A DNA stretch of 25,621 bases from an uncultured Methylomarinum sp. (GCA_964506335.1 CAZDMC010000001.1:1-25621); one strand, 5' to 3'. Positions 4,977 to 12,043 are shown, numbered from the stretch's first letter. Notes: a model not told the origin generated them from the sequence alone. Made by a program: numbers and translations.

Positions 4977-5117
4977 GAACCTGCTCAAGATCTACTGCGC
5001 CACTGCCAGTCGCGCTTGGGCGGTGCTCGAAATCCTCATTTACTTCGTGTAAACTCCGGTTTCTGCGCTCCGTCCGCACACAACTGGCAGTGGCTCGTAA
5101 CGATCTTGAACAGGTTC
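4977..5117. mobile_element. 141-bp MITE, GAACCTG-type ends, 3-bp TTA target duplication
   Basis: TIRs GAACCTGCTCAAGATC (4977-4992) / GATCTTGAACAGGTTC (5102-5117), 15/16 match. Perfect 12-bp inner IR GCCACTGCCAGT (4999-5010) / ACTGGCAGTGGC (5083-5094). TTA at 4974-76 and 5118-20. Confidence 0.88.
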
Positions 5118-6020
5118 TTAGGTAACAGATTCAACCATTTCAACCTGCACCTGATTTCTGCCATTTTGTTTGGCTCGGTACATGGCTTGATCTGCTCTTT
5201 TAAGTAACGATTCCATTGAGTCGCCTTCCCTTAATGAACTAACACCCATACTTGCAGTAAGTTTAACAATCTCTAAACCGTAAGCAATCGTATGATTTTC
5301 TATACCTCTACGAATTCTTTCTGCCGCTATTTGAACGCCAGCAATATCAGTATCTCTTAATAAAATCACAAATTCTTCACCGCCATAGCGAAAAACAACA
5401 TCACTGTCTCTTACGATCTCTTTTATACAGTTAGCGGCTGATGCCAATGCAATATCACCACATTCATGGCCAAAGTTATCATTGATTTTCTTAAAATGAT
5501 CCATATCAAAAAAAATAACCGATAAATGATGGCTATTTCTATGCGCTAACTGAATTTCTTTCTGGATAGTATCATTGAAAGCTGTTCTATTATTGGTTTT
5601 TGTTAAAGGGTCGGTGTACGCCATTCTTAATGCCTGCTGATAAACCGTAGCATTTTTTAATGGGTAAATAAGAGAGCAAAACAAGGTTTCTAACAACTTG
5701 ATTTCGTCACTGTTAAATCGTTGCCGACGCATCATGGTTAAACTACCCAGTTGCATGTCTTCAATTTTAAACAGGTAAGTACAAGAATGATGGGTGACTA
5801 TCCCTTTTTTTATTTCCAGATCAAATTGTTTATTTTCATAAACATAGCCTGTATGAGGAACCAGATCAAGTATTTTGCCACTAAATATATTGATAAGTTC
5901 TGAGAATTCCAGTGTAGTTTGTAATGCACTGCTAATATCATAATTATGCAGACTGACTGATTTTGATGCTGCAAAACTTTTATTGCTTACAATTGCCAGG
6001 TTTCCAATTTCTTTTTTCAT
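5118..6020 (-). CDS. Diguanylate cyclase (C-terminal GGEEF domain, N-terminal GAF-like region)
   Basis: DMDHFKKINDNFGHECGD and RYGGEEF active site; RxxD I-site (RDSD) five residues before GGEEF; DPLT linker. Architecture resembles Pseudomonas PA3177-type enzymes (recollection, unverified). Confidence 0.93.
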   Translation of the reverse strand: MKKEIGNLAIVSNKSFAASKSVSLHNYDISSALQTTLEFSELINIFSGKILDLVPHTGYVYENKQFDLEIKKGIVTHHSCTYLFKIEDMQLGSLTMMRRQRFNSDEIKLLETLFCSLIYPLKNATVYQQALRMAYTDPLTKTNNRTAFNDTIQKEIQLAHRNSHHLSVIFFDMDHFKKINDNFGHECGDIALASAANCIKEIVRDSDVVFRYGGEEFVILLRDTDIAGVQIAAERIRRGIENHTIAYGLEIVKLTASMGVSSLREGDSMESLLKRADQAMYRAKQNGRNQVQVEMVESVT

Positions 6021-6064
6021 GACAAATTCTCGCTCTCTTAAACTAAGTATTAATTTAAGATTAA

Positions 6065-6080
6065 AGCGATTTATGAGCCA
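6065..6080 (-). promoter_or_regulatory. Putative sigma54 (-24/-12) promoter of the diguanylate cyclase
   Basis: Minus strand TGGCTCATAAATCGCT = GG-N10-GC versus consensus TGGCACNNNNNTTGCW, 45-60 bp before the ATG. Confidence 0.55.
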
Positions 6081-6099
6081 TAAATATATTTTACATAAA

Positions 6100-6112
6100 A
6101 ATCACTGCATTA
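6100..6112 (+). promoter_or_regulatory. Putative IHF site
   Basis: AATCACTGCATTA versus WATCARNNNNTTR (one mismatch), preceded by an A/T tract and lying between the enhancer-like box and the sigma54 site. Confidence 0.35.
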
Positions 6113-6122
6113 TGGTTGCTTC

Positions 6123-6136
6123 GTCAATTTTTTGTC
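6123..6136 (-). promoter_or_regulatory. Putative FleQ/FlrA-type binding box
   Basis: Minus strand GACAAAAAATTGAC versus P. aeruginosa FleQ consensus GTCaNTAAAtTGAC; the ATTGAC half-site is intact. Confidence 0.5.
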
Positions 6137-6162
6137 TTAGTCTTTACCAAGAGACACCTCTA

Positions 6163-10343: not shown

Positions 10344-10435
10344 TACTGGTAGAATATCCTATAGTTTGTTGAAAACGAATCGCGTATTATTCACCAAATT
10401 AAAGGTGACTTTCGACATTTTTTTAATCTTTTTTG

Positions 10436-10480
10436 GTAACTATTCACTGTGATTTTGCTGCAAGCTCACGGAATAGATGC
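10436..10480. mobile_element. 45-bp mini/decayed GTAAC-type element in the smc-queF spacer
   Basis: Left end GTAACTATTCA; decayed right end CGGAATAGATGC (9/12 to CTGAATAGTTAC); flanks CTTTTTTG / CTTTATTC (6/8). Confidence 0.5.
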
Positions 10481-10497
10481 CTTTATTCTATTGAGAC

Positions 10498-10887
10498 ATG
10501 AGTACCCAGCCCAGTAAACACCTTGATACCTTTGACAACCCTAAGCCTGGGCGTGATTTCACTATCCGCATTGATATACCAGAATTCACTTGTCTGTGTC
10601 CTATGACCGGACAACCTGATTTTGCCACCATTACCCTTGAGTATGTACCTAATAAACTCTGTGTGGAATTAAAAGCACTTAAACTTTATATGTGGTCATT
10701 CCGCGAACAAGGCGCTTTTCATGAAGCGGTAACTAATGAAATGCTGGATGATATTGTTAAGCTCATTGCCCCGTATTTTATCCGCATCCGTGCTGTATTT
10801 AATGTCCGAGGGGGAATCTATACAACCGTAATAGCCGAGCATAAAGATAAACACTGGCAAGCACCTGAATTGGTTAATTTGCCTTAG
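10498..10887 (+). CDS. queF: NADPH-dependent 7-cyano-7-deazaguanine (preQ0) reductase, short unimodular type
   Basis: [16 protein letters not shown] (catalytic Cys), [19 protein letters not shown]; divergent from smc. Confidence 0.95.
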
Positions 10888-11878
10888 CGGTAGTACTTGT
10901 GCTTTTTTTAGCCGAAAGAATTGCCTCACTCAACTGATAAACTGCCATGGCATATAAAGGACTGTGGTTATATCGGGTAATGACATAGAAATTATGTAAT
11001 CCTACCCATAAATCGCTTCCTTTTTCTTGCTCATAAGCCAATAACTTTACAGCTTCACTAGCATCTATTGAATGTTCTGAAGTTATCGACAATAGCTCTA
11101 ATTCTGCCCAGTTTTTATCCGGTTTTAAACCTTTGCTTAATGCCTGTTGAAAAGATTCTCCTTCTGCTGAAACCGAAAAAGTAATTGCATTGTTTTTACG
11201 CCAATGATGCTCCACAAAATAATTTGCAACACTGGCAATTGCATCAGCCGGGTTCTCCCAGATATCTCTTTTTCCATCTTTCTCAAAATCTGCTGCATAG
11301 GCTCTAAAACTACTGGGCATAAATTGTGGAATACCCATTGCACCAGCATAAGACCCTGTAGGTTCCAATGGATTCATGTTCTCCTCACGACAAAGCAGCA
11401 AAAAATTTTCCAGTTCACTGAGAAAAAATTTACTGCGCCTCGGATAGGAAAAACCCAGTGTGGATAGAGCATCAATGACCCGGTGATGTCCCGTATGTCC
11501 ACCATAACGCGTTTCAACACCAATAATAGCGACAATTATTTCTGCTGGAACACCATATTCTGCCTCAACTTTTGCTAATGTGTTTTCATTTTCTTGCCAA
11601 AACTTTACCCCTCCTTTTATACGCGAGCTGGTCATAAATATTTTTCTATACTTATGCCACGGCATTCCCTCTGCTGGTCTGTCCATGGCTTTAATTATAT
11701 TTTGCTTAATATCAACCGATTTAAATAACTGTTTTATTTTGCTAGCATCAAATTGATGCTTATTGCTCATTTTGTTAATAAAATCATTAAATAATTCTGT
11801 TTCTTCTACAGCTGCAAGCGTACTGCTACTGGCTAACACGCCATAACAAAATAAAAATCCGATAAATATATTTTTCAT
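10874..11878 (-). CDS. mltB: Lytic murein transglycosylase B family (MltB/SltB1)
   Basis: IIGVETRYG (catalytic Glu), [31 protein letters not shown]-terminal signal peptide without a clear lipobox. Lies downstream of rodA. Confidence 0.93.
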
Positions 11879-11895
11879 GTTTAATTCATGTTTAA
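11874..11895. repeat. 11-bp perfect tandem duplication spanning the mltB start codon
   Basis: TTCATGTTTAA at 11874-11884 and 11885-11895. Confidence 0.85.
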
Positions 11896-11901
11896 TTTAA
11901 G

Positions 11902-12043
11902 GTAACTACTCAGTGTAATCTGTAATTGCTCAGATTGCCCTTAATTTTGTTCAAGAGCAAGGCGAAAGCGCACAGTTTACAAGTGTAAATGAGCACTTTC
12001 AATGCAGCTATTGGACAAAATCAAGGGTAAACTAAATAGTTAC
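11902..12043. mobile_element. 142-bp MITE, GTAAC-type ends, 8-bp target duplication
   Basis: Ends GTAACTACTCAG / CTAAATAGTTAC (10/12). Direct repeat AATTTAAG at 11894-11901 and 12044-12051. Inner arms GCCCTTAATTTTGTTCAA / TTGGACAAAATCAAGGGT (15/18). Central TTTAC-AAGT-GTAAA hairpin. Second left-end-like copy at 11922. Confidence 0.88.

Follow-up and report, generated by a model that had tools for sequence, protein, structure and literature searches.

Two fold-back MITEs of an uncultured Methylomarinum sp. probably share an ERIC/sX9-like body joined to different ends

The window, i.e., the whole stretch of 25,621 nucleotides analysed here from an uncultured Methylomarinum sp., harbors two fold-back MITEs, E1 and E2, which are probably ERIC/sX9-like elements built from one widespread "body" supplied with modular ends. 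Elements of this kind are known; the unity of the kind across phyla and the swapping of its ends appear to be undescribed in the literature searched. Both E1 and E2 display the generic features of MITEs (a length below 300 bp, non-coding sequence, inverted repeats, target duplication, and dispersed copies), and in this window they are ordinary intergenic passengers residing exactly on the stop codons of a GGDEF gene and of rodA. The features of the two elements and their surroundings are as follows:

4964–4973, plus strand: GAACCTGTTC with TTA on either side, directly left of E1 (read from the sequence)
4974–4976, no strand: left target-site duplication of E1, TTA (read from the sequence; the relatives L205 (TAA) and L206 (TTA) have the same 3-bp TNA duplication)
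4977–5117, plus strand: E1, a 141-bp fold-back MITE with the termini GAACCTGCTCAAGATC / GATCTTGAACAGGTTC (sequence, fold, near-identical copies)
5001–5094, plus strand: whole-model match of R1 (95 positions) in E1, 44.7 bits, E = 5e-14
5029–5063, plus strand: apical hairpin of E1, GAAATC-CTCA-TTTAC-ttcgt-GTAAA-CTCC-GGTTTC
5038–5112, plus strand: match of Rfam RF02228 (sX9) in E1, from the apical hairpin through the right end, 43.0 bits vs. a gathering score of 44
5118–5120, no strand: right target-site duplication of E1, TTA, which is the TAA stop codon of the minus-strand GGDEF gene
5118–6020, minus strand: ORF with a GGDEF domain, its stop codon at the right edge of E1 (ORF call and domain match)
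11894–11901, no strand: first copy of the 8-bp target-site duplication of E2, AATTTAAG (read from the sequence)
11902–12043, minus strand: E2, a 142-bp fold-back MITE with GTAAC-type termini (GTAACTATTTAG... / ...CTGAGTAGTTAC) and a second, internal terminus copy
11934–12027, minus strand: whole-model match of R1 in E2, 42.9 bits, E = 2e-13
11964–12000, minus strand: apical hairpin of E2, GAAAGTGC-TCA-TTTAC-actt-GTAAA-CTGT-GCGCTTTC
12044–12051, no strand: second copy of the target-site duplication of E2, AATTTAAG, overlapping the rodA stop codon
12047–13177, minus strand: rodA ORF with an FtsW/RodA domain (ORF call and domain match)

As sequenced, E1 is bounded as TTA/GAACCTGCTCAAGATC...GATCTTGAACAGGTTC/TTA, with terminal inverted repeats of 16 nt (one mismatch) and a predicted single-stranded DNA fold of -38.3 kcal/mol (z = -7.4). 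It lies in the intergenic spacer between convergent genes, and copies 85–94% identical to it are present in four Methylomarinum-like MAG contigs (L205–L208); three E1-type copies show 3-bp duplications at TNA targets (TTA, TAA, TTA). The boundaries of E2 are AATTTAAG/GTAAC...GTTAC/AATTTAAG, its terminal inverted repeats read GTAACTA.T.AG at each end, and its fold amounts to -26.7 kcal/mol (z = -5.3). Situated between the co-directional rodA and mltB, E2 is 88% identical to L202 over 101 nt, and its architecture recurs in the Methylococcales locus L140 and in the Mariprofundales loci L076, L082, L139, and L197; duplications of 8 bp were found in E2, L139, L194, L138, and L230.

The apex of both fold-back MITEs is formed by CTCATTTAC-N4/5-GTAAACT. 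Within the window there are exactly two occurrences of the pattern CTCATTTAC-N(3-6)-GTAAAC, at 5035–5054 (plus strand) and 11975–11993 (minus strand), and it was matched in none of 100 dinucleotide-preserving shuffles, so the claim of the sequence-only reading that one hairpin core is carried by two MITEs with different ends and duplications holds. That reading took 16 positions plus the GAAA/TTTC closure for the shared unit; the core was recovered but its extent was underestimated, since the whole 95-position model aligns to both elements. Compared pairwise, E1 and E2 have little common sequence outside the core; their wider homology rests on the relatives of each element, which carry the flanking motifs TGCGTT and GCCTTG, and on the alignment with R1. 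The part common to E1 and E2 is an interior module of roughly 50–70 nt, not a 16-nt cargo. A chance or convergent likeness of A/T-rich hairpins, to which the brevity of the exact common string (just 16 nt) might point, is extremely improbable given the shuffling result, the scores of both elements (above 42 bits) on a model derived from other organisms, and the existence of hundreds of copies flanked in the same manner.

The matches listed for the hairpin include loci of Pseudomonas, Halomonas, Bacteroidales, Mariprofundales, Gallionella, Methylococcales, and further groups; in almost all of them, the hairpin forms the tip of a long imperfect palindrome. A pattern specifying 20 nt has at least 120 matches in genome contigs of many orders, and nearly all loci of a looser hairpin scan were confirmed as members by nhmmer (222 hits). 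The consensus and the extended module, derived from an alignment of 116 sequences, read TGCGTT-stem-CTCAAAATG-CTCATTTAC-loop-GTAAACTSCGCTTTTTC-stem-GCCTTG; the core is much more conserved here than the arms, the family alignments having been ascertained with the core fixed. The exception is a less biased set of 123 metagenomic copies collected with the flanks specified and the stem free to vary: the apical stem is perfectly paired in 117 of them, with six stem sequences represented (TTTA/TAAA 76, CATA/TATG 26, TGTA/TACA 7, CGTA/TACG 4, CTTA/TAAG 3, TTGG/CCAA 1). In the proximal stems, compensatory changes affect 6 of the 13 predicted pairs (e.g., GC 93, CG 13, AU 5). Taken with the shuffles, these counts mark the core as both enriched and covarying. 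Covarying stems could partly come from template-switch "correction" of quasi-palindromes, not from selection; this is hardly the whole story, judging by the mismatches and internal loops that are stably conserved beside the stems.

Copies of the family, unannotated, also reside on conjugative and mobilizable plasmids. All-against-all clustering of 1950 ORFs revealed no recurrent neighbour gene (the largest family spans 7 loci), as is expected of a non-autonomous element. A literature search with the sequence string returned only noise.

The body is found with different ends. Three further kinds of sites in the window bear on this:

1–53, minus strand: E0, truncated where the window begins; a GTAAC terminus of the E3 type (30–53) joined directly to E1-interior sequence (1–29)
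10436–10458, plus strand: solo left terminus of the E3 type, GTAACTATTCACTGTGATTTTGC, 40 nt upstream of queF
16427–16449, plus strand: solo left terminus of the E3 type, GTAACTATTCACTATGATTCTGC, between mreB and mreC
25404–25556, plus strand: E3, a GTAAC-type MITE flanked by AAAATTT, without the hairpin module and without an R1 match

At least three terminus types are found with the hairpin module (TNA with 3-bp duplications, GTAAC with 8-bp duplications, and Bacteroidales types), hence the supposition of more than one terminus type is corroborated both in the window and beyond. Conversely, the GTAAC terminus family of E2 and E3 encloses unrelated interiors in Methylomarinum, Brocadiaceae, and other gammaproteobacterial MAGs. 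Together, these two observations indicate that ends and body are exchangeable. In addition to the two contexts given by the sequence-only reading, a third one, E0, had been overlooked: window positions 1–29 are the reverse complement of E1 5053–5081 with 100% identity (inverted repeat I1), and E0, as read from its sequence, is a fresh chimera of both element types, combining the E1 interior with a GTAAC-type terminus. The E0 junction pattern had no match in the metagenomes searched. As for E3, which has a 95% identical copy in Methylomarinum L206 and full copies in L229, it was not listed by the family model R1 even at E <= 10 with filters off, so that the "looser relative" of the hairpin described at 25481–25494 has to be dropped.

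The idea that the core itself is the selected unit fits the data, but common descent of the interior combined with exchange of ends explains them at least as well. A rival reading, in which a hairpin of roughly 20–30 nt is a tiny mobile or convertible module, SDR-like, entering or replacing the tips of existing hairpins, is unlikely, although it would account for the hairpin both in unrelated MITEs and in terminator-like stems. The core does cap short hairpins lacking other family features (L086, L049, L098, and L013), which are not easily explained by a body inherited whole; its conservation is far above that of the arms, and E0 joins sequence from inside the apex to a foreign end. Most copies are nevertheless conserved well past the core (TGCGTT...CTCAAAATG...CGCTTTTTC...GCCTTG), including the relatives of E1 (L205, L206) and of E2 (L202, Mariprofundales). 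The SDRs of Nostocaceae, from Elhai et al. 2008, are reportedly very small conserved units nested in larger, less conserved repeats (MITEs); the concept, compared by description only, is like that of the hairpin in a MITE. SDRs have been reported from Nostocaceae only (PMC5861425), i.e., from cyanobacterial hosts, and the host of E1 and E2 is not a cyanobacterium. A cyanobacterial origin (Nezha, SDR), to which the base composition had pointed, was rejected on the copies in Methylomarinum and on the genes of the window; the host is a Methylomarinum-like gammaproteobacterium.

Of the known repeats, ERIC offers the closest parallel in design. This element (also IRU; about 127 bp, classed as a MITE) is a non-coding imperfect palindrome, located in intergenic, transcribed DNA and similar in size to E1 and E2, which are, as far as known here from sequence, intergenic palindromes of 141–142 bp. 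The apices are laid out alike (outer stem, TCA, 5-bp stem, loop, stem, CTC(C), outer stem), that of ERIC reading CCCCAG-TCA-CTTAC-TTAT-GTAAG-CTC-CTGGGG, and TGCGTT occurs twice in the left arm of ERIC, with GCCTT in the right arm. The apical stems are one compensated pair apart (C-G in ERIC, T-A here), whereas the proximal stem is G/C-rich in ERIC and A/T-rich in the family of E1 and E2. The exact central inverted repeat of ERIC, GAGCTTAC-ATAA-GTAAGTGAC, is absent from E1 and E2, its architecture being homologous. The covariance model R1 (95 positions), made without enterobacterial sequences, matches the ERIC centre in the ybhJ–ybhI spacer of E. coli with 17.3 bits (E = 8.5e-4), and the alignment is colinear over TGCGTT, TCAyTTAC, GTAArCTCC, and GCCTT. 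By this covariance-model test the resemblance to ERIC is homology, significant but modest at 17 bits. The ERIC elements are flanked by TA (PMC3184786), which has no counterpart in the 3-bp TTA flanks of E1 or the 8-bp ones of E2. They are, furthermore, defined for Enterobacteriaceae and Vibrionaceae, whereas the host of E1 and E2 is a methanotroph and their nearest copies are in Methylomarinum MAGs. After thirty-five years of the use of ERIC in typing, we know of no established origin, mover, or function for it.

At gathering thresholds, neither the window nor any of 18 canonical loci had an Rfam match; in a permissive search, sX9 and V_AS5 appeared. E1 5038–5112 aligns over the full length of the 76-nt sX9 model (RF02228, a Xanthomonas sRNA), with E-values of 7e-7 for a searched stretch of 211 nt and 8e-5 for the whole window, and falls 1 bit short of the gathering score (43.0 vs. 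44); L207, the 94%-identical sister of E1, reaches 49.2 bits and is above this cut-off. The sX9 consensus apex is compensated (AUGUAC...GUACA). As far as these alignments go, E1 is in effect sX9, and with ERIC as a long-known relative the expectation of an undescribed system is, strictly speaking, not borne out. The sX9 model spans only the right half of the element, and Rfam files it as an sRNA gene of unknown function and not as half a MITE. It is unmatched by E2, for which no Rfam family was matched even at E <= 0.05, and by the common Pseudomonas, Halomonas, and Bacteroidales forms. The V_AS5 model (RF02818, a Vibrio antisense RNA), unmatched by E1 and E2, matches the E. coli ERIC copy with 46 bits, under its cut-off of 96, and hence is another database entry capturing a piece of this repeat kind.

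Other systems share single traits with the family. MITEPsy1 and other Pseudomonas IS5-family MITEs resemble the common proteobacterial members and E1 both in the style of their termini (GG..TCTGAAAAAG..) and in having short duplications of the YTAR type. In-vivo transposition has been shown for MITEPsy1, an IS5-type MITE with CTAG/YTAA duplication (PMC3189936). Its duplication is of 4 bp, and it was rejected as a family member: its interior, read from p1448A-A, lacks the CTCA-stem-loop-stem-CTSC hairpin. The RAYT-mobilised REP/REPIN are likewise short conserved intergenic hairpins enriched between convergent genes; unlike them, the family has neither a GTAG or CGTC head nor doublet organisation in its consensus, possesses clear terminal inverted repeats and target duplications, and has no recurrent neighbour gene. 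TyrR boxes, IHF sites, attC, IS608 TTAC targets, and CRESS nonanucleotides were set aside on spacing, sequence, or duplications.

An autonomous partner was sought as well: the window contains no transposase gene, the fetched loci contain no IS-sized pairs of either terminus type, and a terminus scan for a full IS with GTAAC ends gave only MITEs and solo ends adjacent to host genes. The IS66 family has ends starting with GTAA (GTAAGCG onward) and 8-bp duplications. The terminus family of E2 and E3 has 8-bp duplications and a GTAAC start; past GTAA, its ends do not look like the IS66 GTAAGCG, and no IS66 transposase was found.

On the reading of one body with modular ends, the body is an imperfect palindrome shaped like a rod, and its apex, which is fixed, is composed of a 5-bp stem (TTTAC/GTAAA here, covarying elsewhere) and a loop of 3–6 nt. 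Below the apex comes a conserved asymmetric internal loop (TCA vs. CTSC), then a 2-bp clamp followed by a T.T mismatch and an A/T stem; farther out are the TGCGTT and GCCTTG internal loops. The movers are presumably resident DDE transposases, which would act in trans and read the ends only: for E1, the mover may be an IS5-family enzyme with TNA or YTAR targets, and for E2, an enzyme of a family making 8-bp duplications. Tentatively, and as the least certain step, it is possible, if less than an even bet, that the apex is conserved through a role in nucleating the intrastrand fold, be it in single-stranded DNA at the replication fork, in a cruciform, or in read-through RNA; such folding would bring the two element ends together. 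Processing of the RNA could then leave stable half-element RNAs like the 75-nt sX9, with the 5' end at the apical internal loop.

Selection at the host level on the hairpin as a functional RNA site, e.g., an RNase E entry or processing site or a boxA-like site for NusB/S10, is improbable. The TGCTCATTTACA of the hairpin resembles the boxA sequence TGCTCTTTAACA, and ERIC influences mRNA decay in Yersinia. When located within transcripts, ERIC has been reported to create an RNase E site (reviewed in PMC3184786), and sX9, a Northern-confirmed 75-nt RNA of Xanthomonas Xcv 85-10 (PMC3300014), accumulates as a discrete RNA with its 5' end in the apical internal loop (CUC/AUUUAC). Copies lie between convergent genes in 26 cases vs. 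8 between divergent ones, an enrichment in 3' regions. Against such a site, the orientation relative to flanking co-directional genes shows no significant bias (20 sense, 12 antisense), and the arms contain G.T mismatches as often as A.C ones (206 vs. 197, p = 0.69), i.e., the arms bear no RNA-strand signature, contrary to RNA-only selection. The G of "TGCTC" and its partner covary (GC 93, CG 13), which is base-pair behaviour and not that of a protein contact. Finally, no sigma-70-like promoter spacing precedes the 5' end of sX9 in the consensus inspected by eye (CAAAAT is just 4 nt away, with no -35 at 17 bp). No evidence of a specific protein-binding, RNA-processing, or nucleoid-organising role emerged, the copies showing neither an orientation bias nor an excess of G.T over A.C.

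Rather doubtful is the suggestion that the apex (CTCA, covarying 5-bp stem, loop, CTSC, T.T mismatch, clamp) is the handle by which a widely conserved trans-acting factor recognises folded single strands, and the module a pan-bacterial hitch-hiker. Candidates for the factor could be host proteins of replication or repair, proteins that process RNA, or enzymes of mobile elements; the module would be a selfish or domesticated unit riding on any transposon ends that happen to be active locally; and one system would comprise ERIC, sX9, and many unannotated repeats.

The sX9 family is annotated in many copies (PMC9029176, PMC10924375), serves as an sRNA-gene annotation in many genomes, and has even been termed essential. 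If E1, E2, and their relatives are one kind of repeat, with exchangeable ends and a structurally constrained apex common to Pseudomonadota and Bacteroidota (weaker matches in phyla beyond these two may be mis-binned), many of these "sRNA" annotations are MITE halves, and the exchange of ends and bodies would provide a concrete model of transposase switching by non-autonomous elements. The comparative data would also single out nucleotides for mutation, with covariation seen in the stem but neither in the TCA/CTSC loop nor in the T.T mismatch. A possible trace of E1-type mobility is preserved in the window itself, where the short GAACCTGTTC at 4964–4973 looks like two E1-type tips joined, i.e., a footprint or a minimal remnant.

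Both sites at which the sequence-only reading had placed a common hairpin core can be read directly in the sequence as it described them. Two matches to CTCATTTAC-N3-6-GTAAAC are present in the window (5035-5054, plus strand; 11975-11993, minus strand), with 0 matches across 100 dinucleotide-preserving shuffles, and the shared motif constitutes the very apex of long single-strand rods (fold z of -7.4 for E1 and -5.3 for E2, the two fold-back MITEs carrying it). The contexts recognized earlier, E1 and E2, are real, but a fourth one, the element E0 cut by the window edge, was overlooked.

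Mobile elements of the window
4977-5117: E1, 141 bp, ends TTA/GAACCTGCTCAAGATC ... GATCTTGAACAGGTTC/TTA
11902-12043, minus strand: E2, 142 bp, GTAAC-type ends, perfect 8-bp duplication AATTTAAG
25404-25556: E3, GTAAC-type ends, AAAATTT on the flanks, interior different from that of E1 and E2
1-53: E0, positions 1-29 reverse-complementary to E1 5053-5081 without mismatch, GTAAC-type terminus at 30-53

The third element, E3, had been regarded as a looser relative, but it gave no match, even at E <= 10, to the family covariance model (R1, 95 positions), against which E1 reaches 44.7 bits and E2 42.9 bits; the initial observation was mostly right, holding for E1 and E2 and failing for E3. In E0, a 29-nt stretch with 100% identity to the E1 interior begins inside the apical stem and is fused to an E3-type terminus. 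This junction, absent from the metagenomes searched, looks like a recent product of exchange between ends and body, i.e., the interior module around the core. Directly to the left of E1 (4961-4976) resides the sequence TTA-GAACCTGTTC-TTA, where the triplets on both sides of the 10-nt piece are identical to the E1 duplication; the piece resembles a fusion of the two outermost tips of E1 and may be what an excision left behind or a minimal remnant.

Housekeeping genes fill the window (rmlACDB, a GGDEF gene, zipA, smc, queF, mltB, rodA, pbp2, mreDCB, gatAB, fimV, asd, and adk), and there is no transposase among them. E1 is located where rmlB and the GGDEF gene converge, its right TTA duplication (5118-5120) being the TAA stop codon of the latter, and E2 occupies the spacer separating rodA from mltB, on the coding strand of both, with its 8-bp duplication (12044-12051) overlapping the TAA stop of rodA. 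Both the GGDEF gene and rodA remain intact despite the insertions at their stop codons, and such A/T-rich stop regions seem to be insertion targets.

The alignment of 116 sequences yielded the consensus TGCGTT-[variable 9-10-bp stem]-CTCAAAATG-CTCATTTAC-loop-GTAAACTSCGCTTTTTC-[stem']-GCCTTG. The apical stem of the hairpin has 5 bp and sits on an asymmetric internal loop in which TCA faces CTSC. Farther out come a 2-bp clamp, a T.T mismatch, the A4/T4 stem, a small bulge, the variable stem, and another internal loop, with GCGTT facing GCCTTG. In the proximal stems, compensatory changes affect 6 of the 13 pairs predicted by RNAalifold; the clamp pair is GC in 93 sequences, CG in 13, and AU in 5, and the pair at the base of the variable stem is CG in 47, GC in 41, UA in 6, and AU in 3. 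Since the apical stem was fixed by the earlier search patterns, a less biased metagenome scan was run with fixed flanks and four free stem positions per side. Perfect pairing was found in 117 of the 123 distinct copies, with six stem sequences (TTTA/TAAA 76, CATA/TATG 26, TGTA/TACA 7, CGTA/TACG 4, CTTA/TAAG 3, TTGG/CCAA 1) and loops of 3 to 6 nt. Together with the compensated proximal pairs, this bears out the expected covariation of the core.

The variable loop length and the free stem sequence argue for the core acting as a folded single strand and not as a double-stranded operator of a dimeric protein. Simple palindrome "correction" could partly account for covarying stems; that invariant mismatches adjoin freely covarying pairs argues that it is not the whole explanation. 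The arms contain G.T and A.C mismatches at equal frequency (206 vs. 197), so there is no sign that one RNA strand has been under selection. On the strand with CTCATTTAC, pyrimidine–pyrimidine mismatches are four times commoner than purine–purine ones (533 vs. 130), largely because of the conserved TGCGTT and GCCTTG loops; the excess makes the palindrome asymmetric between left and right, consistently across phyla.

A scan of one genome per species with the pattern CTCATTTAC-N3-6-GTAAACT-N4-6-TTTC (20 specified bases) returned at least 120 matches, the chance expectation being estimated at about 13. Among the matches listed were Pseudomonas, Halomonas, Salinicola, Chromohalobacter, Methylophagaceae, Thiotrichaceae, Methylococcales, Nitrosomonadales, Gallionella, Mariprofundales, Desulfobacterales, and many Bacteroidales, e.g., Alistipes and Tidjanibacter, and nearly all of those listed have the motif in the middle of a long imperfect palindrome. 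A profile of these copies gave 222 matches and confirmed nearly every locus of an earlier, looser scan as a real member, so true copies greatly outnumber chance matches. Unannotated copies are also present on conjugative and mobilizable plasmids of Pseudomonas and Halomonas. Other phyla yielded weaker or possibly mis-binned matches. Within the genome collection, a 29-mer of E1 was confined to Methylomarinum MAG contigs, harboring copies of E1 and E3 at 85-95% identity, and to one contig labelled Bacteroidetes (L207, JAJRWN010000087.1), which has an E1 copy 94% identical and otherwise Methylomarinum-type repeats and is probably mis-binned. The host is accordingly Methylomarinum-like and not a cyanobacterium. 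Ructibacterium was listed with an Alistipes-type copy; this and other odd taxa among the matches may have the same cause.

The resemblance to ERIC noted earlier was supported by the family model, built solely from non-enterobacterial copies: of its matches beyond the window, the strongest falls on the central part of an authentic E. coli ERIC copy between ybhJ and ybhI (17.3 bits, E = 8.5e-4), colinear over TGCGTT, TCAcTTAC, GTAAgCTCC, and GCCTT. The apex is shared by ERIC save for a single compensated pair (CCCCAG-TCA-CTTAC-TTAT-GTAAG-CTC-CTGGGG). The E. coli ERIC copy, in turn, matches RF02818 (V_AS5) below the cut-off of that family. At curated thresholds, no Rfam match was obtained, but in a permissive search E1 5038-5112 aligned end-to-end with RF02228 (sX9), its 43.0 bits falling just short of the cut-off of 44, which the L207 copy passes with 49.2 bits. 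The consensus apex of sX9 has a different compensated stem (AUGUAC...GUACA). No Rfam family was matched by E2 or by the forms common in Pseudomonas, Halomonas, and Bacteroidales.

sX9 is a 75-nt RNA confirmed by Northern blotting in Xanthomonas, without an assigned function (PMC3300014); it ranks among the most abundant "sRNAs" over bacterial genomes (PMC9029176) and is annotated in several copies per genome (PMC10924375). Its induction by copper has been reported, and a Tn-seq preprint called it "essential", although missing insertions or multi-mapping reads in a short repeat could mislead such a call. In the literature found, there was no account of sX9 as a repeated half-MITE and no tie of it to ERIC. 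Overall, the earlier interpretation was right in part: different transposon ends do share a structured module related to ERIC, but the shared unit was drawn too small and its novelty overstated, since E1 is sX9 in effect and ERIC is a long-known relative. What appears to be new, as far as Rfam 15 and the searched literature go, is that a single kind of repeat in Pseudomonadota and Bacteroidota takes in ERIC, sX9, and very many unannotated repeats, that the apex is under strict structural constraint, and that bodies and ends are exchanged.

Body and ends, i.e., termini with their target duplications, are separable. The body is joined to at least three end classes, in agreement with the proposal of more than one terminus type for the core.

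End classes joined to the body
Proteobacterial: style (C)TAG-G..C.T.T..AAAA, E1 type included
Bacteroidales: e.g., GAGGCTGAATAAAAAG, GAAGTTGTCTAACAAGG
GTAAC, with 8-bp duplications: E2; L139, AAATCTTC; L194, about 7 bp; L138, 7/8 positions

The E1-type duplications are 3-bp TNA (TTA in E1, TAA in L205, TTA in L206). Ends of the proteobacterial style are shared by MITEPsy1, an IS5-type MITE with transposition shown in vivo and CTAG/YTAA duplications (PMC3189936), whose interior, unlike that of the family, lacks the hairpin. E2-like elements, GCGTTGAAA(A/G)TG-core-CGCTTTTTCGCCTTG, are found in Methylococcales and Zetaproteobacteria. The converse also holds: behind the E3-type GTAAC terminus, GTAACTATTCA....GATTTTGC, lie quite different, unrelated interiors in Methylomarinum, as well as in Brocadiaceae (Planctomycetota) and another gammaproteobacterial MAG (loci L214, L220, L227, L228, and L230 for the last two), with a clean 8-bp duplication, AAAACTAA, in Brocadiaceae (L230, 1691-1860). 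Solo E3-type ends (23-nt GTAACTATTCA....GATT.TGC) occur just upstream of host genes at 10436-10458 (queF) and 16427-16449 of the window; in a Methylomarinum contig (L217, reverse strand), one precedes by about 20 nt a 664-aa ORF with a queA-like gene behind it, though this tie to queuosine may be coincidental.

No recurrent neighbouring gene was found near the copies, which fits non-autonomous elements moved in trans. Their orientation relative to co-directional flanking genes had no significant bias (20 sense, 12 antisense), and they were commoner in convergent than in divergent spacers (26 vs. 8). As to function, we infer that the body is a rod passed on both by inheritance and by horizontal spread, the apex of which would nucleate intrastrand folding in single-stranded DNA, a cruciform, or read-through RNA, uniting both ends for whatever DDE transposase recognizes them. 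Half-element RNAs such as sX9 could arise in transcripts by processing of the rod at its apical internal loop. Compatible with this folding account, the host may have exapted the hairpin as an RNase E or boxA-like site: the family consensus ...ATGCTCATTTACA... resembles the NusB/S10 boxA consensus, TGCTCTTTAACA, with two positions different. Counter to this resemblance, the covariation of the G in ATGCTCATTTACA argues that it is a base pair.

The hairpin tip itself may also be a tiny convertible module, likewise compatible with folding, as suggested by short (~45-nt) hairpins (L086, L049, L098, L013) capped by the CTCA-stem-loop-stem-CTSC tip without other family features. Some of them are G/C-rich and followed by a T run. 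Repeats of another kind were seen in the FimV-like gene of the window (893 aa; 20904-23585, minus strand), where three to four 66-nt tandem units at 21448-21653 presumably encode a repeated acidic peptide.
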